From: an uncultured Gammaproteobacteria bacterium
GTDB taxonomy: Bacteria > Patescibacteriota > Patescibacteriia > SG8-24
Direction of reading: 5' to 3'
Length of the DNA: 64,000 bases
NCBI GenBank assembly: GCA_964491475.1
Contig: CAZBFO010000003.1
Span: 253,293 to 317,292 of the forward strand
Every line of letters begins with the position of its first letter. The stretch's first letter is position 1. Shown piece by piece: positions 2,979 to 64,000 of this stretch. A model generated the notes under the pieces. It was not told where the DNA came from. It saw only the letters and a list, made by a program, of their open reading frames with translations, and made no database searches. Position numbers and translations under genes: made by a program.

Positions 2979-5768
<2,790 letters not shown>

Positions 5769-6073: not shown

Positions 6074-6155
6074 GAAAGACCTCCGTGTGAGTGGTGAGTA
6101 TCACGCGGCGGTGGTAGTGTCAACGCGTAACGATTGGCTTCTCCTTCCGCCGCAT

Positions 6156-9129: not shown

Positions 9130-9196
9130 CACCGCGCTCGGCGCGGTTTTTTTGTCGCCTTCACTCTTTCGGCAAAAGGCCGTATCCTTCAGGCGT

Positions 9197-18841: not shown

Positions 18842-18955
18842 ACTGATTGAGGATAACTGTGCGTGGCTGTCAGCGCGAATGAAAGACGCGCTGATTTTTT
18901 GAGCGAAACGAGCATAATAAAATCAAGCATTTTACGGAGTAATCCACATCACCTT

Positions 18956-18985
18956 TTGGAGGTGGAAGGGGTCTTGCTCTATAAT
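18956..18985 (+). promoter_or_regulatory. candidate promoter of the giant surface-protein gene (-35 TTGGAG, 18-nt spacer, -10 TATAAT)
   Basis: TTGGAG at 18956-18961 and TATAAT at 18980-18985, about 30 nt upstream of the ATG at 19016. Confidence 0.35.
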
Positions 18986-19015
18986 AGGCGTGTACTCATT
19001 TTTCGCGCCAAGTTC

Positions 19016-40142: not shown

Positions 40143-43100
40143 TTACTTGGAAAGCGTCTGCGAGTCGGTGGGGACGACCTTCACGTAGCCGCCGTTGGCC
40201 CAGTCGGCACTGCTGGCGCCCACTGTGGCGTCGTGCGGCGAGGCGGACTGGTCTGACCAGACGAACTCGGAGTCGGTGCCGTCCACGGCGAACGGATAGT
40301 GGGCGGTGTCGCCGGCGACGGTCAAGGCGCCGGTGTCGAGCAGGGTGGCGCCGTCGTCGCCCAGCAGATGGCCGGTGACGGAGGAGCCGACGGATGCCGC
40401 GCCGACGTTCAGGCGGATGTCGTAGGTGCGCGAGGAGCCTGCCGCGACGGTTTCCTCGTTCGCCAGGCGAAGCACCAAGGTGCAGGTCGCGGCGGCACCG
40501 CAGGCGGTCAGCGCCGAGCTGCCGGCGAGATTGGACGAATCGCCGACGCGGCGCAGCTGCGAGTCGCCGTTGCTGATGTTGGTGATGGTTCCTGACGTGC
40601 CGTTGTTGACCAGCATCGCCAGCCCCTTGAGCGCCACGTCGCCGCCGCCGGCCGAGACGGTGAAGCGCATGGCCACGTTTTGGCCTGCCGTGAGCGTGGC
40701 GGTGGGCAGCGCCGCCAGGCTGACCGTAGGAACGGCCTTGCGGACGATCTTGGCGTTGCCGACCATGTCGCCGCCGATCGAAGTGATCAAGGTGGAGCTT
40801 CCGGCGGAAGCGCCGCGGATTTCGAGCGTGCCGGCGGTGTCCTTGAGGGTGGCCGTCACGGCGGAGCCGGTGGTCGCGCCGCTCGGGCCGACGGCGTTCA
40901 AGGTTCCCTTGACGGTCAGGTTCTTGGAGCTGTCTTTGGCGATGACGAAGCCGGTGATGCCGGAGAAGTCGGCGTTTCCGGAACCGTCGACCGAGACGGG
41001 GCCGGCGATCATCGTGCCGCCGTCGTAGAGGGAGAGGCTGCTGACGGCGTTGGGCGTGGCCACGTTGATGCGGGCCTTGGTCAGCTTGAGGTCTTCGTAT
41101 TGGGCGCTGAAGCGGAATTTGGCGAGCGTGACGCTGCTGGCCGACCCCAGCAGCAGGCCGGCGTCCGTTTCGGTCGAGCTGTCGGACGAGACGGCGGTGG
41201 TGACGGTGCCGCCGTCGGTCAGGCGCATGGCGGGTCCGTTGGCGGTGCCCGTGGCGGCGAGGGCGTTGCCGTCGGCATCGGTGGCGCTGACGTTGCCGCC
41301 GGTCAGCTGGAATGAGACGTCATCCGGGAGCGTGCCGGCGGCCATCGAGGAAGCGAGGTTGCCCCGGAGCTGCAAGGTGACGGTTTGGCCGGAAGGGACG
41401 ATCAGGTTGAGGGTGTCGAAGGTCAGGCTGCCGTCCGTGCCCGAGGCGGGGGACTTGGCGGCGCCGAGCTGCGTCGAGCCGTTCCAGAGCGTCACGGTCT
41501 GGACGTCGTCGGCAACGGAGGCGCAGCCTGCCGGCTCGCGGCCGTTGGAGAAAGCGCCGTTCGGGGCATTGGTGCAGACGCCGGAGTTGTCGCTGGAGTC
41601 GATACGTCCCTGCAGCTGGAGCGAGCTGATCGTCACCGGAGAGCCGTCGCCGGCCTTGAGCGAGAGGCCCATCAGCGCGACGCCCTGGCTGCCCTTCACG
41701 TACGATTGCGCCACCGGCGTCGAAGCGGCCGAAACCGCCAGCGTGGCCGGTGCCAGGCTGAACTGGTTGCCGGCGATGACGGAATCCGGGACGTAGTCGG
41801 ACGAGGTCAGGTCCTGGTTGGTGTCCACGTTCTTGATGGCCGAGGCGAGCGCGCTGAACTTGTTGAGCGAGACGCGGAGCTTGGACAGCGGGCCGAGAAT
41901 GGAGGCGTTGGCGACGTCGGCGACCACCTTGAAGGTGCGTGACTGGCCGGCCGGCAAAGTGAACGTTTCGGAGAAGTCGAGCGTGGCGGAAGCGGCACCG
42001 ACCAGGTAGCCCGTGGCACCGGTGACGTCCTTGGGACCCAGCACCGTGGTGCCGCTGGCCGTGTCGATGACTTTGATGTTGGTGATGCGGGGCGAGCTTA
42101 GCGAACCGTTATCGAGCGCACTGGCGCCGTCGCCGGAGACCGCCAGCTGGAGCTTGCGCACGTCCAATTTGGCGAGGGCCGACATGGTGAAGTTGAACAG
42201 CTCGACGCTTTTGGCGGCCGCGGCCAGGTTCTTGGAGGCCGGACCGTTGAACGAGGTGGTCAGCGTGCCGGACTCGATGCGGGTCGAAGAGCAATTGCCT
42301 GCGCCCAGCGCGCAGCTGTCGCCGTCGTACGATGCGCCGTTGGCGGTGGTGGTCACGACGGCCGAAGCGAAGCCGTACACGTGGCCGTAGGCGGCGACGT
42401 CGACCGGGTCGTCCACGTACGTGAAAATCGTTTCCGCGGTGCCGCCGCGCGATTCGGGGGCGATGTCGGCGTACAGGCTGAAAGTGCGGCTGTTGTTCTT
42501 TGTAAGCGTCACCGGGGTCGCCAGGACGAAGGTGGCACGGTCATAACGGTCGTATTTGGCGACGGTCGCGAGCGCGTTGCCGGCGCTCTCCAGCGACAGG
42601 TTGGAGAGCCTCTCGCGGGCGACGGAGCCGCCGTGGGTCAGGGCCAGCGAGGCGAAGTCCATGTCTTCGGTGCCGTCCAAAGTGAACTTGAACTCGCCGA
42701 TTTTCTGATGCTTGCCGCCGGAGACTACGTTGGAGAGCGGTGCCGGTCCCGACTTGTCGACGCTCAACAGGCCGCTGTTCGCCGGAGACATGGTGAAGAG
42801 GTTGCCGTGCAGCGGCAGGCCGCGGGCTGTCAGGTTGCCGCTCTTGAGGTCGATCAGGTCGAGCGCGTGCTGGTTGGAGCCGCCGAGGAAATAATTGAAG
42901 CCGGCGATGACCGACAGCACTTCGGTGGTTCCCGGCGCGACGTCCAAAATGACGCTGTTGAAGGCGGCGTCGTTGCTGGTGGAGTTGATGGTGACCATGC
43001 TGGTCAGGCGGTCGTAGCCGTGGAACAGGTACAGGCCGGCGATGTCGGTGTTGCCGCCGGCGCCGCGGCGATGAAGAGTGACCGAGGTGACGGCCGCCGT

Positions 43101-43763
43101 CGTTGAACCGGTGTTGGTGACGGCGATTTCCATCATCGACACGCCGATGCCGCCGACGAAGGTGTTCGAGGGGGGATTAGTCGGGGCGAGGGCGACCGAC
43201 AGCTTTCCGGATGAAGCGGCGGTTCCGCCGATGCCTCTGTCCGCGTTGATCGAGGCGGCCGCGGCCGAGGCCGAGGCGGGCGAGAAGTCAGCGGCGGCGC
43301 TCAAGTCCGAGCCCACGGAGTAGTTGGTGAAGAAGGCGTCTGGAACGTCGACGATTTTCTTGTTCCAGTCCGAGCCGTACAGCGCGGCCGCGATCGCCTC
43401 CGACGGCACCCAGCGCAGGGTGCAGTTGCGGTCGACGGCGTACACTTTGGGGTCAGTCGTAATTTTGACCATCAGCGCGCCTGGCTTCATGCAGACGTTG
43501 CCGCCGACAGTCATGGCGGCGAGCTCGGCATCAGTAAGGGTAGTGACAGCGGAAAAGTCCGCATACCAGGTCTTGTAGGTGGTCTGGTTCGGGAAGACGT
43601 AGCGCTTGCCGTCGGCGCCGACGTAATAGACGGCGGGTGTCGAGGCTTTGACCAGCGCGCCAGAAGACGCGCCCAAGGCGGCGAGCGGGGCGAACAGGGC
43701 AGAAAGAGACAGCGACCAGGCAATTGTCGCCGAGACGACCGCGGCGGTGAGGGATTTGCGCAT
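40143..43763 (-). CDS. large secreted Ser/Thr/Ala-rich surface protein (about 1,206 aa; adhesin or S-layer-like)
   Basis: Signal peptide MRKSLTAAVVSATIAWSLSLSALFAPLAALGASSG. Long beta-rich low-complexity region with repeated TLT/SVS/TVT tripeptide-type segments. Start placed at the internal ATG 43763. Confidence 0.6.
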   Translation of the reverse strand: MRKSLTAAVVSATIAWSLSLSALFAPLAALGASSGALVKASTPAVYYVGADGKRYVFPNQTTYKTWYADFSAVTTLTDAELAAMTVGGNVCMKPGALMVKITTDPKVYAVDRNCTLRWVPSEAIAAALYGSDWNKKIVDVPDAFFTNYSVGSDLSAAADFSPASASAAAASINADRGIGGTAASSGKLSVALAPTNPPSNTFVGGIGVSMMEIAVTNTGSTTAAVTSVTLHRRGAGGNTDIAGLYLFHGYDRLTSMVTINSTSNDAAFNSVILDVAPGTTEVLSVIAGFNYFLGGSNQHALDLIDLKSGNLTARGLPLHGNLFTMSPANSGLLSVDKSGPAPLSNVVSGGKHQKIGEFKFTLDGTEDMDFASLALTHGGSVARERLSNLSLESAGNALATVAKYDRYDRATFVLATPVTLTKNNSRTFSLYADIAPESRGGTAETIFTYVDDPVDVAAYGHVYGFASAVVTTTANGASYDGDSCALGAGNCSSTRIESGTLTTSFNGPASKNLAAAAKSVELFNFTMSALAKLDVRKLQLAVSGDGASALDNGSLSSPRITNIKVIDTASGTTVLGPKDVTGATGYLVGAASATLDFSETFTLPAGQSRTFKVVADVANASILGPLSKLRVSLNKFSALASAIKNVDTNQDLTSSDYVPDSVIAGNQFSLAPATLAVSAASTPVAQSYVKGSQGVALMGLSLKAGDGSPVTISSLQLQGRIDSSDNSGVCTNAPNGAFSNGREPAGCASVADDVQTVTLWNGSTQLGAAKSPASGTDGSLTFDTLNLIVPSGQTVTLQLRGNLASSMAAGTLPDDVSFQLTGGNVSATDADGNALAATGTANGPAMRLTDGGTVTTAVSSDSSTETDAGLLLGSASSVTLAKFRFSAQYEDLKLTKARINVATPNAVSSLSLYDGGTMIAGPVSVDGSGNADFSGITGFVIAKDSSKNLTVKGTLNAVGPSGATTGSAVTATLKDTAGTLEIRGASAGSSTLITSIGGDMVGNAKIVRKAVPTVSLAALPTATLTAGQNVAMRFTVSAGGGDVALKGLAMLVNNGTSGTITNISNGDSQLRRVGDSSNLAGSSALTACGAAATCTLVLRLANEETVAAGSSRTYDIRLNVGAASVGSSVTGHLLGDDGATLLDTGALTVAGDTAHYPFAVDGTDSEFVWSDQSASPHDATVGASSADWANGGYVKVVPTDSQTLSK

Positions 43764-43820
43764 GGGGATGCGGTTAAGAGATTCGTGGTCAGTATAGCAG
43801 TTTTTCCCGATGCCATGGGC

Positions 43821-43848
43821 AAAAAAAGCCCCCGTTATGCACGGGGGC
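43821..43848 (-). terminator. intrinsic terminator downstream of the minus-strand serine protease gene
   Basis: The minus strand reads GCCCCCGT-GCATA-ACGGGGGC followed by TTTTTTT (revcomp of 43821-43848). Confidence 0.45.
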
Positions 43849-43852
43849 GGTG

Positions 43853-44623
43853 TCAACGCAGGTCTGCGCGGGTCACGCCGAGCGCGGCCAGGGCATGCTC
43901 GATGGGAACGAGCCGCAGGCGGCCGTTCTTGCCATACGGTCCCAGGGCGACGCCGACGATTTCGCCGCAGGCGTTCAGCACGGGGGAGCCGTTGTCGAGC
44001 GGCCTGCTCGGAATTTCGGCCTCGGCGAGACTTACGTCGCCGTCGCCAGCAACGTCGGCTTGCGCGATGGTGCCATTCACCAGCGGACCGTGGTCGCCGA
44101 GAAACCAGACGCGATCGCCAAGGATGACCTTGTCATGCCGAATGGCCATCGGCGGCGGCATGGAACCGCTGACGTTCAGCATCAGCAGCGCCAGGTCGGC
44201 GTCGCGCGAAGTGACCAGCGGCGTCGCCAACGCTTCGCGCGTTTCCTGGTAGCGGCCGTTCTCGGCAGGCGAGCGGAGGGTGACGGTAATGAGCTGCGCT
44301 CCCTGGATGACGTGATAGGCCGTCAGGACGTAGCCTTTCGAGCCGATGATCGTGCCGGAGCCGGTCAGGGCGGACCGGCCGGCTTCGCCGTTGTAGCGGA
44401 GACCTCGGACGGTCACCGTCGAGGCCACGGTCCGCCTTATGAACCCTTCCTCGCGGGCGCGGGCGGCGGCAGCCGAGACGTTCGGCTGGCCGAAGGCCAG
44501 GCACTCGGTGTCCTGGGGGCAGATGCCCGGCGCACGGACGTAAACGGTCTTGGTGCAGGCGGCCGCGAAGAGCACGATGCCCAATGTCAGCAGCCGCAGG
44601 AAATGAGCGAGAGGGCGGGCCAT
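43853..44623 (-). CDS. trypsin-like serine protease (S1 family, HtrA/DegP-like protease domain without obvious PDZ)
   Basis: Start at the internal ATG with AAGGAGG 5 nt upstream. N-terminus MARPLAHFLRLLTLGIVLFAAAC is a signal peptide, possibly a lipobox. Catalytic motifs GYVLTAYHVIQGA (His) and GDHGPLVN-type Ser region. Confidence 0.7.
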   Translation of the reverse strand: MARPLAHFLRLLTLGIVLFAAACTKTVYVRAPGICPQDTECLAFGQPNVSAAAARAREEGFIRRTVASTVTVRGLRYNGEAGRSALTGSGTIIGSKGYVLTAYHVIQGAQLITVTLRSPAENGRYQETREALATPLVTSRDADLALLMLNVSGSMPPPMAIRHDKVILGDRVWFLGDHGPLVNGTIAQADVAGDGDVSLAEAEIPSRPLDNGSPVLNACGEIVGVALGPYGKNGRLRLVPIEHALAALGVTRADLR

Positions 44624-55092: not shown

Positions 55093-55986
55093 ATGTCAAA
55101 CGTGCATATCTGCCAAGAGCATAACGACTACGTGTTCGGCATCGCCATGAAGGAGGCGGTCCGGCGGGCGGTCAGCGTCATCCGGCGACAGCGTTTCACC
55201 TTCGAGGCGCAGGCCAAAGAAGGCCTGAGCGGCGCCATGGACGACCTGGTGACCACTGCCGACATCGTGGCGCAGGAAACGTACGTCAAGACGCTGGGTA
55301 AGGCCTTTCCCGCCTGGGGCATCGTGGCCGAAGAAAACGGCCTGTCGGTGGCCTGCCGCATGGAAGGTACCGACGCCTACTTTACCGTCGACCCGCTCGA
55401 CGGCACCAAGGCGTTTGCGCGCGGGCAGTGGGACGGCGTAGGGACGATGATCTCCGCGGTCGTCGACGGGCGCGTGATCGCCGCCTTCGTCGGCGATGCC
55501 GGCGCTCCGGCGATCTACGGCTACCGTCCGAATTCCCCGCACGTGCACCGCGTCGGAGATTTCGACACGCCCGAGCTGCTTCGGATCGACGGGCGACGCC
55601 CGTTGGCGGAACAGAAGGTGCTGGTCCGCATGGACCTGGACATGTACGGCCCGCTGCTCCGCAGGCTGCTGCACCCGAGTTCCGGATCGTTCCGGTCGCT
55701 CGAGCGCGTCAACGGCAGCATCGGCATCGGCATCGCGCGGATGTGGAAGGGCGAGGTCGGAGGTGCGGTGATGGCGCGCGGCGTCACTACCCCGTGGGAC
55801 CTCTGTCCCATCATCGGCATTTCCGAACGGTTGGGTTTCGTCTTCCTCCGTTGCACCGAAAATGACCTGGTTCCGTACAAGCCCGTCGTCAGCAAGAAGA
55901 TCGAACGTGTCGACTTTGACACGCTGATCGTCCACGAGAGCCGCGTCGAAGAAGCGCGTAACGCGCTTCGGCGCATCAAGGCGTAG
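55093..55986 (+). CDS. inositol monophosphatase / FBPase / CysQ-superfamily phosphatase (candidate pAp or NADP(H) phosphatase)
   Basis: Metal-binding motifs GIVAEENG (EE), VDPLDGTKAF (DPxDGT) and WDLCPIIGI (WDxxA/P). GGAGGTGAG Shine-Dalgarno sequence before the ATG. Confidence 0.65.
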   Translation: MSNVHICQEHNDYVFGIAMKEAVRRAVSVIRRQRFTFEAQAKEGLSGAMDDLVTTADIVAQETYVKTLGKAFPAWGIVAEENGLSVACRMEGTDAYFTVDPLDGTKAFARGQWDGVGTMISAVVDGRVIAAFVGDAGAPAIYGYRPNSPHVHRVGDFDTPELLRIDGRRPLAEQKVLVRMDLDMYGPLLRRLLHPSSGSFRSLERVNGSIGIGIARMWKGEVGGAVMARGVTTPWDLCPIIGISERLGFVFLRCTENDLVPYKPVVSKKIERVDFDTLIVHESRVEEARNALRRIKA

Positions 55987-56097: not shown

Positions 56098-56760
56098 ATG
56101 AAACCACACGTCAGCGGGCGAGTCGCCATAATGGAAGGTTCAAAATTCAACCTTTCATTGGTGATGACCGCACATGAGTTCGTGCTCGACAATATCCTCG
56201 CCGACGCCGGCCCCATCCAGATGGCGATCGACATGGCTAAGGGCCGTAACCGCTTCGATTGGCCCGCACCCGGCAAGAAGATTGCCAGGCAGATCTGGGA
56301 AAGCCTCAAGGCGCTGCACGACGTCGATGCGCGACCGCTCATGCTGATTGGGCGCGACATTACCGTGCAAGTGCGGCTGCTCGGCAACACTTGGGTCATC
56401 CAGGACGTCGACTCCGGGGAGCTCAAGCTGCACGACGGTAAGCCGCTCACCAGCCTCAACCCTTTGCCGAACATCACGGTGCTTGGTCCTTGGGATGCGT
56501 CCAAAAACGCGTATCGGCTGATGACCGCGGAGCAAGTCGATCGCATCGGCGAGCTCGTCACCGGCCCGCTGGTGCGGCTGAAGCTGGACTTCGAACGCCT
56601 GACGACCGCAAATCATCAGACGCTCAAGTCCGGCTACACCGACTACGCGCGGATTTCGTTTCCGTACGTCAGGTACGGCCTGAGCCGCGAGATCATCACC
56701 GTTCGCTGCGTCTCTTCGGACGGCAAGGAACCGGATCCCACCAGTCACGTGGAGAACTGA
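56098..56760 (+). CDS. hypothetical protein, member A of a tandem paralog pair
   Basis: 220 aa, no recognisable domain. Clearly homologous to the next gene: FDWPAPGKKIARQIWE…ISFPYVRYGLSREIITVRCVSSDGKEPDP versus VDWPYPGKDKVLEAWE…VSFPHSIYGAGEDWLRVRCVRPDGSEVE. Confidence 0.5.
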   Translation: MKPHVSGRVAIMEGSKFNLSLVMTAHEFVLDNILADAGPIQMAIDMAKGRNRFDWPAPGKKIARQIWESLKALHDVDARPLMLIGRDITVQVRLLGNTWVIQDVDSGELKLHDGKPLTSLNPLPNITVLGPWDASKNAYRLMTAEQVDRIGELVTGPLVRLKLDFERLTTANHQTLKSGYTDYARISFPYVRYGLSREIITVRCVSSDGKEPDPTSHVEN

Positions 56761-56761
56761 G

Positions 56762-57433
56762 ATGCTTTTCGGAAAAAAGTCAGCGCCCGTCGTCATCGGC
56801 GGCGCGGCGCCCGTCTTCGGAGAAAAGTTCGACCTCGTCAAGGTGCTCTACGCCTATGAACAGCTGTTCGACGCCCTCACTGCCAGGTTCGGTCACAAGG
56901 GTTCGTCGAGAGTGCAGGGCAGTTACGCTGCCATCGCCGACGGCGTCGACTGGCCGTATCCCGGCAAGGACAAGGTCCTCGAAGCCTGGGAGTTCTGGTC
57001 GCAGCGCTATGACGTCCTGGGGGAGGGCGTGCTGCACCAGGTCGGTCCCGTCGAGTCGCGGGCGTTCGTGCTCGCCCGGAACCGGTACGTCTACGACGCC
57101 GCCAGCCAAAGGCATACGCTCAGCAACGGCCAGCCGCTCGAGTCCCTCGACTCCGGGCCGCAGGTGGCGCTCTATGGCAGGACGCGGGACAACGTCATGA
57201 TCGGCATGAACGAATACCTCGCGGAAAAAGTCCGCGCGATAGTGGTCAGCGATCTCGCCAAGTTCGGCTTCGACTACACCACCGCTTCGTACTCCCGCAC
57301 TCCCAACGTCATCGAAATCGTCGGCTCGGTTTCCTTCCCGCACTCCATCTACGGAGCAGGGGAGGACTGGCTGCGAGTCCGCTGCGTCCGACCCGACGGG
57401 TCAGAGGTGGAGAAGGCGATGGGCGGGAATTAG
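56762..57433 (+). CDS. hypothetical protein, member B of the tandem paralog pair
   Basis: 223 aa. Its ATG lies 1 nt after the TGA of member A (CTGAGATG), suggesting translational coupling. Confidence 0.5.
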   Translation: MLFGKKSAPVVIGGAAPVFGEKFDLVKVLYAYEQLFDALTARFGHKGSSRVQGSYAAIADGVDWPYPGKDKVLEAWEFWSQRYDVLGEGVLHQVGPVESRAFVLARNRYVYDAASQRHTLSNGQPLESLDSGPQVALYGRTRDNVMIGMNEYLAEKVRAIVVSDLAKFGFDYTTASYSRTPNVIEIVGSVSFPHSIYGAGEDWLRVRCVRPDGSEVEKAMGGN

Positions 57434-57517
57434 GACGGATGCGGCCTCCCTACTGGGGGCTGCTTTTTTGTTTCGGTTCCCGATGACGGTTTGCGATCGG
57501 GATGATTTGGGTCGGCG

Positions 57518-57561
57518 TTGACATTGTGCACAGTTTGAGCTACTTTGTGTATCAGTAACAC
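57518..57561 (+). promoter_or_regulatory. candidate promoter (-35 TTGACA, 17-nt spacer, -10 TACTTT) with an overlapping imperfect palindrome GTGTATCAGTAACAC, a candidate NrtR operator
   Basis: TTGACA at 57518-57523. The palindrome at 57547-57561 has half-sites GTGTAT and revcomp GTGTTA, placed at or near the predicted start site directly upstream of nrtR. Confidence 0.35.
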
Positions 57562-57572
57562 GAAGTACCTCT

Positions 57573-58250
57573 ATGCCTTCCGCCATGAATCCGCACCCCT
57601 CCTCGCAGGACATCAAGGTCGCCGCAGACGCGGCAATTTTCACCGTCCAGGACGGGAAGCTCAAGGTGCTGGTTATCGAAATGAAGAAGGCGCCCTTTGC
57701 CGGGCGCTGGGCGCTGCCAGGAGGCCTGATCGACGATCAGGAGACGACGGAGCGCACGGTGCGTCGCGTGCTCAAAGACGAGGCCGGAGTGACTGGTACC
57801 TATCTGGAACAGCTCGGTGCCTTCGACGCGCCCGGTCGCGATCCTTTCGGGCGGGTGGTCAGCGTGGCGTATTTCGCCCTGATTCCTTCTGGTTCCGTGA
57901 CGCTCAAGACCTCACCCAAGTACGCCGCCGTGCGCTGGGCGGCGATCCAGGGCCTCGTCAAGTTGGCGTATGACCACGACGAAGTGCTGCAGGCAGCGGT
58001 GGCCCGCGTCCGCGAACGGCTGGGCTACTCCAACGTGGCCTGGAGCCTGCTGCCGAAGGCCTTCACCCTGGCACAGCTTCAGGAAGTGTATGAGGCCATC
58101 CTCGGAGAGGGCGTGGATAAGCGTAATTTTCGCAAAAAAATCATCGCGTCGGGGCTGCTGGCCCCGACGGGCAAACTGGCGGTCGGCGGCGCACATAGGC
58201 CGGCCGAACTGTTCACTTTCAAGTCCCGTCGGACCGGGTTGACGAAATAG
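57573..58250 (+). CDS. nrtR: NrtR-family transcriptional regulator of NAD metabolism (degenerate Nudix domain + C-terminal winged-helix)
   Basis: Nudix-like box with substituted catalytic glutamates (GRWALPGGLIDDQETTERTVRRVLKDEAGV). C-terminal region LLPKAFTLAQLQEVYEAILGEGVDKRNFRKKI matches the NrtR DNA-binding domain. Heads a cluster of NAD salvage genes. Confidence 0.75.
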   Translation: MPSAMNPHPSSQDIKVAADAAIFTVQDGKLKVLVIEMKKAPFAGRWALPGGLIDDQETTERTVRRVLKDEAGVTGTYLEQLGAFDAPGRDPFGRVVSVAYFALIPSGSVTLKTSPKYAAVRWAAIQGLVKLAYDHDEVLQAAVARVRERLGYSNVAWSLLPKAFTLAQLQEVYEAILGEGVDKRNFRKKIIASGLLAPTGKLAVGGAHRPAELFTFKSRRTGLTK

Positions 58251-58348
58251 TGAAAATCGGCTAACGTCAGCTGTTCTCTTGCTGCATTCGGCGGCAAGGG
58301 GAGAGGCGCTCATTCCACGGCAAAATCCACGACGAAAAAGGAGACATC

Positions 58349-59185
58349 GTGACGAATACCTATCAGCGTGAAGTGTTCCGCGACGACGCGGGGTTCGTGA
58401 TTCGTTCGTTGGCTGCAGATACCAAGCTGGTGATCGGACCGGAGGACGCCATCCTCCATGTCGACATCCAGACAGCCTTCATGACCGACCACGTCCGCGA
58501 TGGCAAGACCATCAGCGGTGGCGGCCTGGGCGTTCCGGGCGGGCACTGCGTCGTCGACGTGGCCCTGCGCAACAGCTCGTTCTTCACGGACGGGCAGCGC
58601 TACTTCAGCCTCGACCGGCATCCGGAAGGGCACGTGGGCGACGTCAACTCGTACGAAGGCTTGGCGCCGTTCACCGACCTCACCGTCGACATGGTTACGG
58701 CCTGGCCGGACGGCAGCCGCATCGTCAGCCCGCACTTCGACCGCGAGTACCTGCTGCGGTATCTGGCCAGCACCCCGACGCACAGGCAGACGCTGTGGCC
58801 GAAGCATGCGCGCAGGGGAACGGCGGAGACCGAACGGCATCCGGCCATGCGGCACCTCACGTGCATGCGCACGCTCGTCAAGGGGCAAGACCCGCGGGTG
58901 GACAGCTACTCGCCGTTCCAGGACAACATCGGTCGTTCGACCGGTCTGGGACAGGAGATGAGAGCCGACGGCGTGAAGCGGCTGTTCATCGACGGCCTCG
59001 CCTACAACGTCTGCGTCGGTCACGCCGCCATCGACGCGTATCTGCTGTTCGGCTTCGAGACCTTTGTCATCAAAGACGCCACGCGGTCGGTGCAGATTCC
59101 CGGCCTCGAGGTGCAGATGGACAACGACCTGGGCCTGTGCCCCGGCGTGCACATCATCACCTCGGACATGTTGGCGTCGGCCTAG
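58349..59185 (+). CDS. isochorismatase-family cysteine hydrolase, candidate nicotinamidase (PncA-like), unusually long
   Basis: GTG start with AAAAAGGAGAC Shine-Dalgarno sequence. Catalytic-type motifs ILHVDIQTAFM (Asp) and RLFIDGLAYNVCVGHAAIDA (Cys). An insertion of about 70 aa is present relative to typical ~200-aa PncA. Its position between nrtR and the NAD synthesis genes supports a nicotinamidase role. Confidence 0.55.
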   Translation: MTNTYQREVFRDDAGFVIRSLAADTKLVIGPEDAILHVDIQTAFMTDHVRDGKTISGGGLGVPGGHCVVDVALRNSSFFTDGQRYFSLDRHPEGHVGDVNSYEGLAPFTDLTVDMVTAWPDGSRIVSPHFDREYLLRYLASTPTHRQTLWPKHARRGTAETERHPAMRHLTCMRTLVKGQDPRVDSYSPFQDNIGRSTGLGQEMRADGVKRLFIDGLAYNVCVGHAAIDAYLLFGFETFVIKDATRSVQIPGLEVQMDNDLGLCPGVHIITSDMLASA

Positions 59186-59375
59186 TTCCTTTCGTTGGTG
59201 CGGAGCACGTCGGTTTTTTGCCGACGCGCTCCGCGATCTTTTTCTTCCGCTGCCCGCGCTTCGGTTCGCAGCATGCCATGGCGCTCATCTTGCATGAGCG
59301 TCGCGGCGTGCCTCGAGATACGCTCGGGCGCAAGGTCATTGCATTTTCGGAAACAGCTACGACAAGGAGGCAGTC

Positions 59376-60791
59376 ATGCCGAAACGCGTCGCCATCTACG
59401 GCGGAAGTTTCAATCCGCCGGCGCATCATCGCGGCGTGGTGGAACGGGTGATGCAGCCTGCCTGCAGGCCCCGCATCGACGAACTGGTGGTGGTGCCTTG
59501 CGGCCCGCGACCGGACAAGCTCAAGAACGACGACACCGATCCGGCACACCGCGCCGCGATGTGCGACATCGCCTTTCGCGGGCTGAAGAACGTGCGCTTG
59601 GACCTGTTCGATCTCGAGAACAACGTCTTCACCAGACAGCTGGAGCTGCAGGAACGCTACGCAGCCGATGGAACCGAGGTATGGCACGTCGTCGGGGCCG
59701 ACCTGGTGAAGGGCGGCGCAAAGGGCGAGTCCGACATCCAGAAGAAGTGGACCCGCGGCGCCGAAGTGTGGGAGAACCTGAACTTCATCGTGGTGCGGCG
59801 TGAGGGGTATCCTCTCGATGATGCTGACCTGCCGCCGCGCTGCGAGATTGTCGGCGTGCAGGATGGCGACGGTGTGGATCGGGTTTCGGGGGCGAGCTCG
59901 AAGATTCGGCTAATGATTTACGATCGGGAGCCGTACAAGCATCTGGTGTCGTCAGAGATTCACGACTACATCGAGCGGTACAACTTGTATCGAGGAGCTC
60001 GCGTTGCAAAGACCACCTCCCTCAAGCTGCCTTCGCCGCGCCCGTTCTTCGTCATCGACGTTGGCAATCCCAAGGCCGAGGCGCTGGCGGCGAAGTACGG
60101 CGCCGCCGGAATCGGCGTCGATGAGGAGCGAGCCAACTGCATCGTCTCCGTCGGCGGCGACGGGCACATGCTGCGTACGGTGCGTCAGCACTGGCGGCGG
60201 CGGTTGCCGTTCGTGGGCATCAACGCCGGGCACGTGGGCTACCTGCTCAACGACCAGCAATTGTTCGGCGACCTGCCGGAGCTGCTGGCCGACCTGCGCG
60301 TGCATCTGCTCACGCAGCTGTCGGTCGAGGCGGAGGACTTGGACGGCAACGTCTCGCACCACTACGGGTTCAACGACGCCTGGGTGCGCGACACCGGACA
60401 AGCCGCCTGGCTCGATGTCACCGTGAATGGTCGCGTAGGCCGCATCATCGGCGACGGCGCGCTGGTCTCTACGCCTGCCGGCTCAACCGGTTATGCGTGG
60501 TCGATGGGAGCGCATCCCATTCTCGTCGACGGCGACGAGATTCTGCTGGTGGGCAACAACGTCTGTCGGCCGAGAGGCTGGCAGTTCATGCGACTGCCAA
60601 AGCACACCGTTATCGAACTGGTCGCCGACGGCGGCGACAAGCGCAAAGTCAGCGGATACGTCGACGGCATGCCGCTGGGCTTCGTTCGGAGGATGCGCTG
60701 CACCTCCAGCAAGATCGCTTCGGTCGAGCTGGCCTTCTCGCCGCAACGCGACTTGGCGGCCAAGTTGAGCGACCAGATGTTTCCGGAGTGA
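59376..60791 (+). CDS. bifunctional fusion: nicotinate/nicotinamide mononucleotide adenylyltransferase (NadD-like) + NAD kinase (NadK)
   Basis: N-terminal ~190 aa: VAIYGGSFNPPAHHRGVVE…(H)VVGADLV…VSGASSKIR, matching the nucleotidyltransferase (H/T)xGH and ISSTxIR motifs of NadD. C-terminal ~270 aa: IVSVGGDGHMLRTV (GGDG), FVGINAGHVGYL, and DGALVSTPAGSTGYAWSMGAHPIL (NAD kinase DGxxxxTPTGSTAY motif). Single continuous ORF of 471 aa. Confidence 0.7.
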   Translation: MPKRVAIYGGSFNPPAHHRGVVERVMQPACRPRIDELVVVPCGPRPDKLKNDDTDPAHRAAMCDIAFRGLKNVRLDLFDLENNVFTRQLELQERYAADGTEVWHVVGADLVKGGAKGESDIQKKWTRGAEVWENLNFIVVRREGYPLDDADLPPRCEIVGVQDGDGVDRVSGASSKIRLMIYDREPYKHLVSSEIHDYIERYNLYRGARVAKTTSLKLPSPRPFFVIDVGNPKAEALAAKYGAAGIGVDEERANCIVSVGGDGHMLRTVRQHWRRRLPFVGINAGHVGYLLNDQQLFGDLPELLADLRVHLLTQLSVEAEDLDGNVSHHYGFNDAWVRDTGQAAWLDVTVNGRVGRIIGDGALVSTPAGSTGYAWSMGAHPILVDGDEILLVGNNVCRPRGWQFMRLPKHTVIELVADGGDKRKVSGYVDGMPLGFVRRMRCTSSKIASVELAFSPQRDLAAKLSDQMFPE

Positions 60792-60886
60792 GCCGCGCGG
60801 GCAAGCGATCGCTTGCCCCCTTTCTTCCGACGACGAAACCTTTCGTCTGCGGAAGATCGGACCGTTCCTTCCAAAAGGGGGACAAC

Positions 60887-61624
60887 ATGGAAAAGAAAGT
60901 CAGCAGCGTGGGAGCGCTGCGCCCCAGCTACGAGCTGGAAGACATCAGGCTGGAACGGCGCGGCTACCTGTCGCTGTTCAGCTATCACGTCGACGGGTTC
61001 GCGCACCGCTTCGAAGTGCTCGATCGCGGGCAGGACGCCGTCATCGTGCTGCCGGTCGATTGGCAGCGGCGGGTGCTGTACCTGATCCGCCAACCGCGCC
61101 CCAACAAGGCGCTGGCGTCGGCCGTCGGCCGCTCCGCTTTGGACACGGCGCGGACCGACCGTTATGTCAGGTTTTGCGCCTCGGACGCCGACGTGCACAC
61201 GCTCGATTCGCCGGCAGGCATGATCGACGGCAAGGAAACTCCCGTCGACGCCGCGATACGCGAAACGTTGGAAGAAACGGGCTTCGTCATCTCCGCCGAA
61301 TCGTTGGCGCAGGTGTCGAGGCACTTCACTTCCACCGGCTGCTCCACCGAGCGGCACGTCTGCTGCTTGGCCTCCGTAACCAAGGACACCGAGCGGCGGC
61401 AGCCGGAAGGCGACGGCGACGAGCACATCGTCACCATCGAAGTGCCCTTCGACGAGGCCTTCGCCATGCTCGACGAGATGCGCGTGGAGCAGTCCACGCT
61501 GGCGGTGCTGCTGCGCGAGGTCAAGCTCCGCGAGCAGGCTCGTGCCATCGCCGAACTGGAATCGCGTTTGCGCGACCAGGCGCTGACCATTCGGCACCTG
61601 ACCGACATGGACGACGGCTTTTGA
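60887..61624 (+). CDS. Nudix hydrolase, ADP-ribose pyrophosphatase-like, with C-terminal coiled-coil tail
   Basis: AAAGGGGGAC before the ATG at 60887. Nudix box PAGMIDGKETPVDAAIRETLEETGFV. The N-terminal beta region (YLSLFSYHVDGFAHRFEVLDRG.DAVIVLPVD) resembles NudF-type ADPRases. C-terminus LREVKLREQARAIAELESRLRDQALTIRHL. Confidence 0.6.
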   Translation: MEKKVSSVGALRPSYELEDIRLERRGYLSLFSYHVDGFAHRFEVLDRGQDAVIVLPVDWQRRVLYLIRQPRPNKALASAVGRSALDTARTDRYVRFCASDADVHTLDSPAGMIDGKETPVDAAIRETLEETGFVISAESLAQVSRHFTSTGCSTERHVCCLASVTKDTERRQPEGDGDEHIVTIEVPFDEAFAMLDEMRVEQSTLAVLLREVKLREQARAIAELESRLRDQALTIRHLTDMDDGF

Positions 61625-61729
61625 CCGCCGACTTCGATTCCCCGGCAAGCTTCCCGCTTGCCCTTCTTCTTCCGCTCACGACTTCCGGTCGTGCGCGGAA
61701 ATCAGAAGGTTCTTTCCACGGAGGCGTTC

Positions 61730-62989
61730 GTGCCCATCATCACGTCATTGCTCGAGGTCGATTTCTACAAGTTCACGATGGCCCAGGTCATCCGCAGGCA
61801 CCATGCCGGCGTGCAGGTCCGGTTCGCCTTCAAGAATCGCAGCAGCAAGACCGACCTGATCGCAAAAGTGGTCGACATCGGCCGGCTGCGCGAGGAGCTG
61901 GAGCATGCGCGCAGCCTGCGGCTGACTCCCGAGGAGATCGACTATCTCCGGCACTGCCCCGGCTATCCCGCCGGGCTGTTCTCCGAGGAGTTTCTCGGGT
62001 TCTTGTCCGAGTTGCGGCTGCCGCCCATTGAGGTCGGCATGCGCGACGGCGAGATCAGCGTCGAGGCGACCGGCGATTGGGAGAGCGTCACCTTCTGGGA
62101 GACGATCGTCCTGAACGTGGTCAACGAGCTGTACTACGACGGCCTGCGCCAACGCGACGGCACGCAAGCCGCCATCGACGATGCCGCCTGGGACCTCCTC
62201 TATCACCCCTTCTGGGATGACGGGCGTCACAAGCTGCGGCAGAAGATCGAGCGCGTCAGGCAGATGCCGTCGGCGCGGATCATCGATTTCGGCAACCGCC
62301 GGCACCACAGCGCCTGGTGGCACGGCGAAGTGCTCAAGGAGCTGGTCAAGGGACTGCCCGGACAGCTGCTCGGCACCTCCTGCGTGCGCCTGGCGAAGAA
62401 GCACGGCATCAAGCCGATCGGCACCTTCGCGCATGAGATGTACATGTGCTATGCCGCGCTCGCGCCGACGTACGACGAGATGGTCCGCTCTCACGCCAAG
62501 GTCCTGAAGGACTGGCGCGAGACGTACGGCGACGAACTGTCCGTCGCGCTGACCGACACCTTCGGCAGCGGATTCTTCTTCCGCTGCATGACCGAGCGGA
62601 TGGCCAAGGACTGGCAGTGGCTGCGCCACGACTCCGGAAGTCCCTACGACTTCGGCGAGCGCGCCATCGGCTTCTACGGGGCGCACGGCATCGATCCCGC
62701 CACCAAGGGCATCGTCTTCAGCGACGGGCTGACGGTCGAGGTCATCGAGAAACTGGTCGCCCAGTTCGACGGTCGCATCAAGTTGGCCTTCGGATGGGGG
62801 ACGGACCTCACCAACGACCTCGGCTACCGGCCGCTGTCGCTGGTGATGAAGGCGGTTGAGGCGGACGGGTACGAGACGGTGAAGCTGTCCGACAATCCCG
62901 CCAAGGCGACGGGCTCGGCGGGCGTCATCAACCTTTACAAACGCCTCTTCCAGTACGAGGAAGGGGAGCGGGAGGAATGCACGTTCTAG
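61730..62989 (+). CDS. pncB: nicotinate phosphoribosyltransferase
   Basis: SLLEVDFYKFTMAQVIRRH parallels E. coli PncB LLDTDAYKLHMQQAVFHHY. A GGAGG precedes an in-frame GTG at 61730, the preferred start. The ORF-track ATG at 61658 is the alternative. Confidence 0.8.
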   Translation: MPIITSLLEVDFYKFTMAQVIRRHHAGVQVRFAFKNRSSKTDLIAKVVDIGRLREELEHARSLRLTPEEIDYLRHCPGYPAGLFSEEFLGFLSELRLPPIEVGMRDGEISVEATGDWESVTFWETIVLNVVNELYYDGLRQRDGTQAAIDDAAWDLLYHPFWDDGRHKLRQKIERVRQMPSARIIDFGNRRHHSAWWHGEVLKELVKGLPGQLLGTSCVRLAKKHGIKPIGTFAHEMYMCYAALAPTYDEMVRSHAKVLKDWRETYGDELSVALTDTFGSGFFFRCMTERMAKDWQWLRHDSGSPYDFGERAIGFYGAHGIDPATKGIVFSDGLTVEVIEKLVAQFDGRIKLAFGWGTDLTNDLGYRPLSLVMKAVEADGYETVKLSDNPAKATGSAGVINLYKRLFQYEEGEREECTF

Positions 62990-63091
62990 TCGCGTGCGAT
63001 TCGGTCGCGGTCCTCTTGGACCGCCCTTTTCTGGGGAAGCCGAGGCAACTCGGCTGTCCCATCCGAAGGATGTTCTTTGCAAGAGGAGCGA

Positions 63092-64000
63092 ATGATGTTG
63101 ACCGGCAGCTACGAGTCCGTGCTGTTCGTCGGCACCGGCGGCGGCAACGACGTTTTTTCGACGGTGTTGGCGTCGCACTGTTTGCGCGAATACGGGGTCC
63201 GCTGGGGACGCAGCGCCATCGCGGGCGTGGTCAGCCCGTTTCACCGTCATGAGCTGGGGAGCACCGTGTTTCCCGGCGTCGGGCTGGTGACGCCCACTTC
63301 CGTGCGGCGGCTTTCACGACGCGGCGACTTGCGCGAGATCGGCTTCGTCGACGCTCGCGTGTCGCAGCTGGTGCGCCGCGGCAGGATCATGACCGACTGC
63401 GTCTACGCGCTCTCGCTGGAGCGCGGCGCCGAAGGCATGGCCGAGTCGTTCGCTGCGCTTGCCAGGGAGTTCGAGCTGATCGTGCTGGTCGACGTCGGGG
63501 GAGACATCTTCTTTGACGGCGAGGACCCGCACGTCATCAGCCCGATGTTCGACGCCATGACGCTGCGCGGCTTCACCGACAGCGGCGCCAAGGGGGTGCT
63601 GTTCGAAGCCGGTCCGGGAACGGACGGCGAGATCGAACCGGAATCGCTGGTCTGCGCGCTGGATCACAGCGGCGGCCTGGCCGACGCGCACCCGATCCCG
63701 CTTGACGCGATGACCCGCTGGGCCGCGCTTTACGGGGAGCACGTCGCCCCGGTCCGTCCCGGCAACACCGTGCCGCGGACCATCGAGGCGTACTGCTCGT
63801 CGGAGCCGGTGCTCACGGTGCCGCACCGCCTGCGCGCGCACCTCGGCGACGTGCGGTGTCACGTGACCTTCACGCAGCGGATCGTCACCGACCTGTGCAA
63901 GAAGTTCTACCTGGTCGACCCCAAGCGCGTGCTCAACCCGTTCGCGGTGCCGTGCGACAGTCCGGCCAAGTGGTTCTGGCTGACGCAGGTGCTGTGGGGA
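63092..64000 (+). CDS. hypothetical protein, 3'-truncated by the window edge
   Basis: AAGAGGAGCG Shine-Dalgarno sequence before ATGATG at 63092. Open frame with no stop to the window end. N-terminal VLFVGTGGGNDVFSTVLA is a Gly-rich nucleotide-binding-like loop loosely reminiscent of CofD/YvcK-type folds (weak). Absent from the ORF track because it lacks a stop. Confidence 0.5.
   Translation, partial: MMLTGSYESVLFVGTGGGNDVFSTVLASHCLREYGVRWGRSAIAGVVSPFHRHELGSTVFPGVGLVTPTSVRRLSRRGDLREIGFVDARVSQLVRRGRIMTDCVYALSLERGAEGMAESFAALAREFELIVLVDVGGDIFFDGEDPHVISPMFDAMTLRGFTDSGAKGVLFEAGPGTDGEIEPESLVCALDHSGGLADAHPIPLDAMTRWAALYGEHVAPVRPGNTVPRTIEAYCSSEPVLTVPHRLRAHLGDVRCHVTFTQRIVTDLCKKFYLVDPKRVLNPFAVPCDSPAKWFWLTQVLWG

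Follow-up and report, generated by a model that had tools for sequence, protein, structure and literature searches.

A probable NrtR-type NAD salvage cluster with conserved intercistronic RNA hairpin elements in a Patescibacteria genome

The stretch of 64,000 nucleotides that was analysed (the window) was found to contain a gene cluster which is quite likely a self-regulated NAD salvage cluster (Preiss-Handler route) of the NrtR type in a Patescibacteria genome. The host was found to be a high-GC member of the Patescibacteria (candidate phyla radiation), and the relatives of the SecA protein of the window pointed to Patescibacteria/Parcubacteria. The regulatory design is an ordinary one of a known type, as nrtR-headed operons of pncA, pncB, nadD and nadE have been known since 2008 (PMC2330246), whereas the NadD-NadK fusion and the conserved intergenic RNA hairpins are unstudied extras. 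A literature search for NrtR in Patescibacteria found no paper connecting the two, and a search for the NadD-NadK fusion found no paper.

Gene content of the cluster

The region 57518-62989 was found to contain five co-directional genes, encoding NrtR, a nicotinamidase, a NadD::NadK fusion, an active-looking Nudix hydrolase and PncB, where the first-pass annotation had placed them, and the five identities given there were upheld at the level of domain or family by Pfam, NCBIfam and PDB matches. The scores of NadD, NadK, PncA and the Nudix hydrolase each lay below the NCBIfam equivalog cut-offs. Syntenic clusters with nrtR, pncA, nadD::nadK, a Nudix or GNAT gene, pncB, prs and nadE were found in three related loci (L032, L033 and L035).

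The nicotinamidase gene (58349..59185, plus strand) encodes a PncA-like protein of the isochorismatase family with 278 aa, longer than classical bacterial PncA (Pfam Isochorismatase 34 bits, cut-off 27). Its catalytic residues were found to be D39, K178 and C222, with D89-x-H91-P-x-x-H95 as the metal motif. Its NCBIfam PncA match (1.3e-21) was under the family cut-off, and its best PDB matches were nicotinamidases throughout (9u8m, 7.6e-19, residues 26-272).

The fusion gene (59376..60791, plus strand; 471 aa) was recognised by Pfam/NCBIfam domains and motif alignments. The nicotinate-mononucleotide adenylyltransferase-like N-terminal half contained GGSFNPPAHH, PCGPRPDK and SSKIR, followed by the presence of GGDG, NAGHVGYL and TPAGSTGY in the NAD kinase half, and these motifs were invariant in two homologue alignments (A1 and A2). 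The fusion is common in databases, with 764 homologues, the best 120 of which were all full-length fusions. The NadK half shares the GGDG, NE/D-type and glycine-rich motifs of stand-alone NadK. The NadD half shares the GxFxP and SxxxxR motifs of stand-alone NadD, whereas the (H/T)xGH motif of the latter is replaced by an invariant PxxHH and an invariant PCGPRPDK is carried as well. Unlike the stand-alone enzymes, both halves fall under the equivalog cut-offs and are joined in a single polypeptide, even though their steps do not follow one another, NadE acting in between.

The Nudix hydrolase gene (60887..61624, plus strand; 245 aa) probably starts at ATG 60887 and not at the long-ORF start 60497, and its product contained an intact Nudix box (G111-F133, RETLEETGF) and a C-terminal extension of about 40 aa. 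It had been called an ADP-ribose pyrophosphatase type, which the matches do not establish, as they extend only to the NDP-sugar/ADP-ribose pyrophosphatase clade, with a TIGR00052 score (55 bits) under the cut-off of 79.6. Its probable substrate is ADP-ribose or a related NDP-sugar. The pncB gene (61730..62989, plus strand) encodes nicotinate phosphoribosyltransferase (NCBIfam NF003704 400 bits, cut-off 379; TIGR01514 301, cut-off 270) and probably starts at GTG 61730, preceded by GGAGG, the alternative start of the gene caller being 61691.

These five genes had been described as a complete nicotinamide-to-NADP route, which was wrong since NadE is absent from them. NadD yields NaAD, which NAD synthetase (NadE) must convert before NadK can act. 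A DUF1152-family gene (63095..64000, plus strand; Pfam DUF1152 85 bits) follows pncB and leaves the window at its end. On the same contig beyond the window (locus L030; window coordinate = L030 coordinate + 53375), it was followed by a PRPP-synthetase-like gene (prs) and a glutamine-dependent nadE gene. Only the addition of the downstream DUF1152, prs and nadE genes completes the route, and the last two of these lie past the window end.

The regulator, its candidate operator and its effector

The nrtR gene (57573..58250, plus strand), before whose start no Shine-Dalgarno sequence was found, encodes a 225-aa protein whose N-terminal domain is Nudix-like and whose C-terminal domain is a winged helix. 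Membership of the NrtR family was confirmed (Pfam NrtR_WHD 83 bits, cut-off 27; NUDIX 59 bits), and the NCBIfam NrtR equivalog score of 150 was far below its cut-off of 400. The Nudix box was found to be degenerate (G51...RVLKDEAGV against REUXEEXGU).

The terminator scan placed an intrinsic terminator of the upstream gene at 57441..57473 (plus strand; a 9-bp stem, then TTTTTTGTTT), which would shield the nrtR promoter from incoming transcription. It was followed by the promoter-like element PnrtR (57518..57546, plus strand), with the -35 sequence TTGACA at 57518-57523, a 17-nt spacer and the -10 sequence TACTTT at 57541-57546. The promoter had been described as overlapped by a palindrome; TTGACA/17/TACTTT is present as described, but GTGTATCAGTAACAC (57547-57561) follows the -10 immediately and abuts it without overlap. 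Only the extended 21-bp imperfect palindrome TTTGTGTATCAGTAACACGAA (57544..57564, unstranded; core GTGTA-N5-AACAC at 57547-57561, central GT-N7-AC) shares the last 3 nt of the -10. This candidate operator spans the expected transcription start. The literature describes NrtR sites as palindromes of 21 bp, centred on GT-N7-AC, which overlap or follow the promoter (PMC2330246), and from this likeness and from the conserved geometry described below the palindrome is very probably the operator of NrtR, in keeping with the repressor-operator role first proposed for it.

Counts within the window would suit a chance likeness of palindrome and promoter, with the true control region elsewhere. The site at 57547-57561 was the sole match to GTGTA-N5-TACAC with up to one mismatch in the 64-kb window, where 0.47 are expected and 39% of shuffled windows contain at least one match, so that the lone palindrome is not significant. 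With a PWM from relatives, the site was not separable from the AT-rich background in the GC-rich window, and 23% of shuffles attained its score. The generic sigma-70 scanner did not call the nrtR promoter because its -10 agrees with TATAAT (the E. coli consensus, which may not be that of the host lineage) at just 3/6 positions. The significance of the palindrome rests on its position (about 1e-3 for the gap of about 130 bp 5′ of nrtR) and on conservation in other genomes. The layout TTGAC-N17-TA.TTT followed by GTGTA-N5-[T/A]ACAC was kept 5′ of nrtR in five other genomes (six in all), at identical distances to the -35, the -10 and the start codon. In the six-genome alignment TTGAC, TA.TTT, GT and ACAC.AA were invariant, whereas the sequence of the 17-nt spacer had diverged. 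Within 200 nt 5′ of 24 nrtR orthologues the motif (up to one mismatch) occurred at 3.57 per kb against 0.099 per kb elsewhere in the same loci, about a 36-fold enrichment, and upstream sites were present at 15/24 loci with up to one mismatch and at 21/24 with up to two. With a site type that also matches the published one (PMC2330246), a chance similarity is strongly disfavoured and highly improbable.

No further operator was found at up to two mismatches ahead of pncA or nadD-nadK, where the first-pass annotation had envisaged copies, and the window contained no others. In Saccharibacteria relatives a second perfect palindrome was found 5′ of a NadM-like NMNAT/Nudix gene.

The effector of NrtR is inferred to be ADP-ribose by analogy with the family. 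It is possible, though rather unlikely, that this NrtR-fold regulator senses something else, namely NAD (like Corynebacterium NdnR), a pyridine nucleotide intermediate or a sugar (like Bacteroides AraR). The nearest solved structure by sequence was the arabinose-sensing AraR of Bacteroides thetaiotaomicron (PDB 5bs6, 1.4e-40, full length), ahead of Shewanella NrtR (3.5e-30). The two-domain architecture of AraR is alike and its operator footprint is dimeric and about 25 bp long (PMC4666351). Arg41 and Arg98 of Shewanella NrtR, which contact ADP-ribose, are not kept here and align to M37 and F92, and family members with other effectors are documented (PMC4666351). However, R89 and the YDH histidine, common to AraR and Shewanella NrtR, were retained, and K38, K39 and R94 adjoin the substituted positions and might compensate. 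AraR binds L-arabinose and controls arabinose genes, whereas the neighbours here are all NAD genes in at least four syntenic genomes, and a sugar effector is therefore unlikely.

Internal promoter-like element and intercistronic RNA hairpins

An internal promoter-like element, TTGACG-17-TAACGT (58239..58267, plus strand), was found to overlap the nrtR stop codon upstream of pncA. The same place was occupied by TTGACG-17-TAACGT in L032, TTGACG-17-TAGCGT in L035 and TTGACT-17-CACTAT in L033. No operator-like site was found near it in the window, and the nrtR-pncA gap contained neither a terminator nor a hairpin element.

Conserved elements with a terminator-like hairpin followed by an anti-SD/SD hairpin were found in at least three, probably four, of the five gaps in the window. 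In element 1 (60798..60862, plus strand), GGGCAAGC-gatc-GCTTGCCC is followed by CCTTTCTTCCG and, past an inner hairpin, by CGGAAGATCGG (cmsearch 55.6 bits, E 1e-9; also flagged by the terminator scan). In element 2 (61642..61708, plus strand), GGCAAGC-ttccc-GCTTGCC is followed by CTTCTTCTTCCGC and, past the inner hairpin, by GCGGAAATCAGAAGG (57.3 bits), and in element 3 (63006..63069, plus strand) GCGGTCC-tctt-GGACCGC is followed by CCTTTTCTGG and, past the inner hairpin, by CCGAAGG (46.3 bits), all three being members of the training set of the model that scored them. Their two-hairpin folds were supported by MFE folding, and where the element is compact its purine tract serves as the SD of the gene that follows. 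The structured pncA-nadD::nadK gap (59200..59353, plus strand) showed the same architecture in its MFE fold, a long GC hairpin followed by the pyrimidine tract GATCTTTTTCTTCCGC, which is predicted to pair with a downstream CGGAA and to enclose a large inner domain. The covariance model did not detect this gap because of the long insertion.

The covariance model was trained on 13 gaps, and in the 858 kb searched its plus-strand matches at E <1e-3 were confined to NAD-cluster gaps. Outside the training genomes it matched L059 and L071 and, more weakly, L036, L060 and L118; the NAD gaps of L119 gave no match and showed the architecture in MFE folds alone. The same kind of element precedes both the prs-like gene and nadE beyond the window. 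Structure-consistent variation was observed (77% of cells paired against 58% in shuffles; 67 cells changed on both sides against 22) in an alignment which was fitted to that model and in which paralogous hairpins are combined, and so speaks for hairpins and not for homology or regulation. No Rfam family was matched by the elements at E up to 1. Like the class I NAD+ riboswitch (nadA motif, Rfam), they consist of stem-loops in tandem on the mRNAs of NAD genes, the second of which involves the ribosome binding site. The elements here differ in the absence of the characteristic ACANCCCC bulge, in being intercistronic with up to six copies per cluster and a terminator-like hairpin first, and in having no evident conserved unpaired pocket.

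Proposed regulation of the salvage route

As in known NrtR NAD regulons (PMC2330246), a regulator with a Nudix-like domain and a winged helix was found to head a pncA/pncB/nadD/nadE salvage cluster, with a 21-bp GT-N7-AC palindrome at or after the promoter and prs among the members. The present cluster differs in its Patescibacteria host, the fusion of NadD to NadK, the additional active Nudix and DUF1152 genes, the single operator and the conserved intercistronic RNA elements.

A single operon under one regulator, as initially described, was not borne out, given the conserved internal promoter-like site before pncA and the terminator-like hairpins 3′ of pncA, nadD::nadK, nudix and pncB, and the cluster probably does not yield one uniform transcript. 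The pncA gene has its own conserved promoter-like element without an operator, and each later gap opens with a weak terminator-like hairpin. The gaps after pncA have no room for a promoter, and the downstream genes must therefore rely on read-through. In the second hairpin the anti-Shine-Dalgarno-like pyrimidine tract would pair with the SD-like purine tract, and the output of each cistron is most likely graded or gated by the elements once transcription has begun.

It is conceivable, if doubtful, that NrtR governs only itself, and pncA by read-through, while the internal promoter, which lacks an operator, drives nadD::nadK, nudix, pncB, DUF1152, prs and nadE, with post-transcriptional tuning of these genes by the hairpin elements. 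The window has one operator and none in the internal gaps, which are occupied by conserved elements, and NrtR control beyond pncA therefore needs read-through of the terminator-like hairpins. The conservation of the internal element 5′ of pncA in four genomes and the strong hairpin with a TTTTT tail after pncA also favour such partial control. However, with no terminator between nrtR and pncA, transcripts from PnrtR should enter pncA. The tails of the internal hairpins are broken by C (CCTTTCTTCC, CTTCTTCTTCC) where terminators elsewhere in the window have uninterrupted T-runs, and this suggests leaky termination. In L032 a second NrtR-like palindrome (AGTTATTGT-N7-ACAATAACT) lies upstream of the internal promoter.

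In the self-regulated salvage cluster favoured here, PncA would convert nicotinamide to nicotinate, PncB would form NaMN with PRPP from Prs, the NadD half of the fusion would form NaAD, NadE would form NAD and the NadK half NADP. An NrtR dimer on the palindrome would block RNA polymerase. In the accepted NrtR mechanism a breakdown product of NAD relieves repression (PMC2330246); here an NAD-derived metabolite, ADP-ribose by analogy, would bind the catalytically dead Nudix domain of NrtR and free the repressor, turning on nrtR and the genes behind it. If the Nudix enzyme cleaves ADP-ribose or a related NDP-sugar, its activity would deplete the inducer and so provide negative feedback.

Predicted promoter and candidate operator of nrtR

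The region 5′ of nrtR was found to contain the -35 hexamer TTGACA (57518-57523, plus strand) followed, after a spacer of 17 nt, by the -10 hexamer TACTTT (57541-57546, plus strand) and the palindrome GTGTATCAGTAACAC (57547-57561), as the first-pass annotation had described; the 15-nt palindrome was found to abut the -10 hexamer at its 3′ side, not to overlap the promoter as claimed there. The extended palindrome TTTGTGTATCAGTAACACGAA (21 bp, 57544-57564), which is the candidate NrtR operator, contained complementary nucleotides at 7 of the 10 arm positions and a central GT(57549-50)-N7-AC(57558-59). NrtR sites were described as 21-bp palindromes with a GT-N7-AC core, which overlap the promoter or lie between the promoter and the start codon (PMC2330246), and the window site was likewise found to be a GT-N7-AC palindrome of ~21 bp at such a position. 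The upstream gene was found to end in a strong intrinsic terminator (57441-57473) in a terminator scan of the window.

Taken within the window alone, the palindrome has no significance. At up to one mismatch, chance would give 0.47 matches to the operator motif GTGTA-N5-TACAC in 64 kb, and at up to two mismatches the window contained 8 matches against 8.5 by chance, none of them in the gaps of the cluster. The additional operators expected by the first-pass annotation were not found among these, and the lack of further operator-like sites, named there as speaking against its reading, was to the letter what the window contained. The match with two mismatches at 9118-9132 was found to overlap a terminator and looks like chance. 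The PWM made from the sites of the relatives did not separate the window operator from the AT-rich background of this GC-rich 64-kb window, and its second top match (58117-58139, inside nrtR) was dismissed as an AT-rich artefact without the GT/AC core.

The case for the operator rests on the comparison between genomes, which is stronger evidence than further copies in the window would have been. In 24 orthologue loci, the motif (at most one mismatch) was present 3.57 times per kb within 200 nt 5′ of the nrtR start and 0.099 times per kb elsewhere; an upstream site was found in 15 of the 24 loci at up to one mismatch and in 21 at up to two. The NrtR orthologue loci L001-L025 were used for operator footprinting only, and in most of them the fusion, pncA and pncB were absent next to nrtR. 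The layout of the window was also found in the five closest loci (L001, L032, L033, L035 and L043), with TTGAC[ACG], exactly 17 nt, TA[CG]TTT and the 15-nt palindrome followed by 11-21 nt to the ATG. The nucleotides TTGAC, TA.TTT, GT and ACAC.AA were invariant across these loci and the window, and the 17-nt spacer was unconserved. The motif is tied to NAD genes in Saccharibacteria too, since the relatives from that group contained a second, perfect copy of the palindrome 5′ of a distant NadM-like NMNAT/Nudix gene. The nrtR-pncA gap of L032 contained a second NrtR-like palindrome (4820-4846), AGTTATTGT-TAATACT-ACAATAACT, with a GT-N7-AC core, which lies 5′ of the internal pncA promoter, and a counterpart of it was absent from the window.

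NrtR, the enzymes and the extent of the cluster

The nrtR gene (57573-58250, plus strand) was found to encode an N-terminal Nudix fold (Pfam NUDIX, 59 bits) followed by a C-terminal winged helix (NrtR_WHD, 83 bits with the cut-off at 27), with full-length matches to the structures of AraR, the arabinose sensor of Bacteroides thetaiotaomicron from the NrtR family, and of the Shewanella protein SoNrtR. Its chromosomal linkage to genes of NAD metabolism is the one described for the family. The score against the NCBIfam equivalog NF050029 (ADPR-responsive repressor) was 149.8 bits, under the cut-off of 400, and the protein is thus placed by its Pfam matches in the family and lies outside this curated subgroup. 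The Nudix box contained RVLKDE where REUXEE is expected, and such degeneration is as expected of a sensor domain. The sequence was found to be nearer to AraR than to SoNrtR. Arg41 and Arg98 of SoNrtR were described as contacts of ADP-ribose (PMC4666351); in the alignment they were replaced by M37 and F92, with R89 and the histidine of YDH kept. The assumption of ADP-ribose as the default ligand is weakened by these replacements, by the closeness to AraR and by the NF050029 score far under its cut-off.

The nicotinamidase gene pncA (58349-59185, plus strand; isochorismatase fold) encodes an unusually long protein of 278 aa, in which the triad Asp39-Lys178-Cys222 and the metal motif D89/H91/H95 were kept in the alignment with nicotinamidase structures. 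All the best solved relatives were nicotinamidases, among them 9u8m (7.6e-19, residues 26-272) and 2wt9; the Pfam domain scored over its cut-off, and the NCBIfam equivalog reached 77, under its cut-off of 174.

The NadD::NadK fusion (59376-60791, plus strand; 471 aa) was found to contain a cytidylyltransferase-like domain followed by an NAD-kinase domain. The N-terminal half contained invariant GGSFNP..HH, PCGPRPDK and S..IR, and the C-terminal half invariant GGDG, N.GH.G.L and a glycine-rich motif. The NadD half contained GGSFNPPAHH, a variant motif with PxxHH in place of HxGH, together with SSKIR, and scored 66 against TIGR00482 (cut-off 112); this half may act as an adenylyltransferase of NaMN or of NMN. 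In the NadK half, G260-G263 (GGDG), NAGHVGYL (283-290) and TPAGSTGY (366-373) were invariant in the family alignment, with an equivalog score of 130 under the cut-off of 211. A total of 764 homologues was found, and the best 120 listed (P0001-P0120) were all full-length (99-100% query coverage, 451-480 aa); many homologues were labelled Patescibacteria and others Acidobacteriota, Polyangia or Verrucomicrobiota. The family is large, well conserved and widespread, and apparently unstudied, as nothing relevant on a NadD-NadK fusion was found in the literature. The same NadD subtype also exists as a stand-alone protein (L063-L084). A metagenome scan with the single fusion protein as query gave no matches, and a scan with an alignment of its close relatives was successful.

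The Nudix hydrolase gene was found to extend from ATG 60887 to 61624 (plus strand), this start being the sensible one with AAAAGGGGGA 5′ of the ATG. The box GX5EX7REUXEEXGU was intact (G111-F133, GMIDGKETPVDAAIRETLEETGF), the score against TIGR00052 was 55, under the cut-off of 79.6, and the best PDB matches (E ~1e-6) were a mixture of NudK (GDP-mannose) and ADPR, ADP-sugar and UDP-glucose pyrophosphatases. An ADP-ribose pyrophosphatase is a reasonable guess from these matches. The pncB gene (61730-62989, plus strand) likely starts at GTG 61730, preceded by GGAGG, and its product was found to score over both NCBIfam cut-offs (NF003704, 400.4 against 379; TIGR01514, 300.8 against 269.55). The long ORFs on the minus strand across the region were rejected as high-GC shadow ORFs, family matches being found on plus-strand ORFs only.

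The first-pass annotation had read the five genes as a complete nicotinamide-to-NADP route, and NadE was found to be missing from 57518-62989; the route is incomplete because NadD yields NaAD, so that an NAD synthetase is required before NadK. The locus L030 is the contig of the window (window coordinate = L030 coordinate + 53375) and runs past the window end, where pncB was found to be followed by a DUF1152 gene (63095 onward, continuing in L030 to 10871, plus strand; Pfam 85 bits), a PRPP-synthetase-like gene and a glutamine-dependent nadE, the latter two both past the window end. Once these genes are counted in, all steps of the Preiss-Handler route between nicotinamide and NADP are predicted to be present, PRPP supply included.

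The order nrtR, pncA, nadD::nadK, Nudix or GNAT, pncB, prs, nadE was found in three further genomes (L032, L033 and L035), and the DUF1152 gene between pncB and prs in the window genome only. An upstream PBP1A gene was common to the window, L032 and L035, and a TPR gene to the window and L035. Directly 5′ of nrtR, the window contained two tandem paralogues (56098-56760 and 56762-57433, ~26% identical) without Pfam or NCBIfam match, of which at least one was also found directly 5′ of nrtR in each of L032, L033 and L035; a functional link of the two to the NAD cluster is possible. At 1.5 kb 5′ of the cluster, a gene of the inositol-monophosphatase family (55093-55986) was found, in a position not kept in L032 and L035. 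In archaea, this fold includes some NADP phosphatases, and the gene may conceivably contribute to the balance between NADP and NAD.

Transcription and intercistronic RNA elements

No Shine-Dalgarno (SD) sequence was found for nrtR, and its leader would be only ~20 nt long. Strong SD sequences were found for the other genes. No terminator was found in the nrtR-pncA gap. A promoter-like element, TTGACG-17-TAACGT (58239-58267, plus strand), overlaps the nrtR stop codon and was found at the same place in L032, L033 and L035; no operator was found near it in the window. In each later gap, a GC-rich hairpin came first and then a pyrimidine-rich tail broken by C (for example CCTTTCTTCC and CTTCTTCTTCC), unlike the terminators elsewhere in the window, which contained clean T-runs. 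Between these structures and the following start codon ~25-40 nt are left, which cannot hold a promoter, so that read-through must account for the expression of the downstream genes. Co-transcription is supported by this, probably with attenuation at each junction. The earlier reading as an operon under one regulator was overstated, given the internal promoter-like element without operator and the terminator-like hairpins of the later gaps.

The classical mechanism is the most likely for NrtR, in which a dimer bound to the operator, and so covering the transcription start, would repress PnrtR and an NAD-derived ligand would free the operator of the dimer. If the Nudix enzyme hydrolyses ADP-ribose, its co-induction with the salvage genes would lead to removal of the inducer and to negative feedback.

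In the MFE folds, the terminator-like hairpin of each of these later gaps was directly followed by a second hairpin, in which a purine tract located 3′ of the pyrimidine tail is its pairing partner and the inner stem often contained GAC/GUC. The order was a terminator-like stem, the pyrimidine tract CYUUUCUUCCG, the inner GAC/GUC hairpin and finally CGGAAG, a purine tract that resembles an SD or is one itself. A covariance model of this element (R1) was built from 13 gaps, and in the 858 kb searched all plus-strand matches at E < 1e-3 were located in gaps of NAD clusters. The window contained R1 matches at 60798-60862, 61642-61708 and 63006-63069 (plus strand), no others being found in the 64 kb, and a related gap structure at 59200-59353 (plus strand), followed on L030 by elements at 10877-10940 and 11932-12020. 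The element was also found in NAD-gene gaps of L032, L033, L035, L038, L043, L059, L060, L071, L036 and L118. Outside the training genomes, matches were found in L059 (two at E ~7e-4 to 8e-4 and a third at E 0.087) and L071, with weaker ones in L036, L060 and L118; the NAD gaps of L119 gave no R1 match and contained the same architecture in MFE folds only. In an alignment that was fitted to the R1 model and mixes paralogous hairpins, 77% of the cells were paired against 58% in shuffled or slid controls, and double-change cells numbered 67 against 22.

The GGCAAGC/GCTTGCC inverted repeat was considered as a DNA operator and rejected; its arms were 4, 5, 9 or 23 nt apart, depending on the copy and the genome, and because of this variation the first stem is read as an RNA stem and not as a dimeric DNA site. 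As to a plain terminator, tracts such as GCCCCCTTTCTTCCG and CGGAAGATCGG were identical between genomes in which the flanking proteins are ~50% identical, which argues for a conservation beyond what a terminator would need. In the compact versions (L059 and L060), the purine tract was found to be the SD of the next gene, and the pyrimidine tract would therefore act as an anti-SD. The Rfam search of four cluster loci (E up to 1), with the NAD riboswitch models (nadA and pnuC motifs) included, gave no credible match. A dedicated regulatory role of these RNA elements is possible. That they form a new cis-regulatory RNA class specific to the NAD-salvage operons of Patescibacteria, with a gating independent of NrtR, is considered rather unlikely; such elements would gate the read-through or the ribosome access of each cistron on a protein or metabolite signal.

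Genomic setting and meaning of the cluster

The window is chromosomal, because it contains the genes of a Mur ligase (MurC-like), MurB, SecA and PBP1A, along with a 5606-aa ORF. A phage or plasmid origin was rejected, since a distant blastn search with the cluster as query yielded no meaningful match in the phage and plasmid collections. The named relatives of SecA were Candidatus Parcubacteria (83%), Parcubacteria SG8_24 (70%), Patescibacteria and Uhrbacteria, and the nearest relatives of NrtR and of the fusion were mostly labelled Saccharibacteria, Parcubacteria or Paceibacterota; the window is assigned from such relatives to a high-GC (~64%) Patescibacteria genome. The single 5606-aa ORF (18863-35683, plus strand), with strongly negative GC skew along it, was found to be followed by a peptidoglycan-binding/fn3 protein (36172-38691) and, on the strand opposite to it, a 1237-aa ORF (40143-43856). 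Surface proteins of such giant size are a typical feature of episymbiotic Patescibacteria. A further group of genes, remote from the NAD locus, was found to comprise another Nudix gene (6012-6623), an exo/endonuclease-phosphatase-family gene (6669-7454) and an NTPase_I-T (DUF84) gene (8016-8570).

In 2008, NrtR-headed operons were described, among them #nrtR-pncA-#pncB-nadD-nadE of Clostridium acetobutylicum, and prs was described as a member of an NrtR regulon (PMC2330246). The window locus is set apart from the known NrtR operons by the NadD::NadK fusion, by a Nudix gene and a DUF1152 gene as additions, by having one operator only and by its intercistronic elements. The locus belongs to this kind of NrtR-headed NAD operon known since 2008, in a lineage for which no earlier report was found; the literature on NrtR in Saccharibacteria and the CPR gave nothing relevant. 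The first-pass interpretation was right in its essence and went too far in 'complete', in 'one regulator' and in the operators that it expected.

Current understanding is not overturned; this principle of regulation was already known in 2008. The genomes of Patescibacteria (candidate phyla radiation) are tiny, and a dependence on hosts for cofactors is assumed for these bacteria. The cluster provides a concrete NAD(P) supply, from nicotinamide or nicotinate and PRPP to NADP, in which the fusion joins two non-consecutive steps (NadD and NadK). It also provides a clear and testable pair of transcription factor and operator in Patescibacteria with a conserved promoter layout, which is useful because, to our knowledge, the promoter architecture of these uncultured lineages is largely unknown. 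The conserved intercistronic RNA element may add a post-transcriptional layer, and follow-up would be most worthwhile for these RNA elements and for the fusion enzyme.
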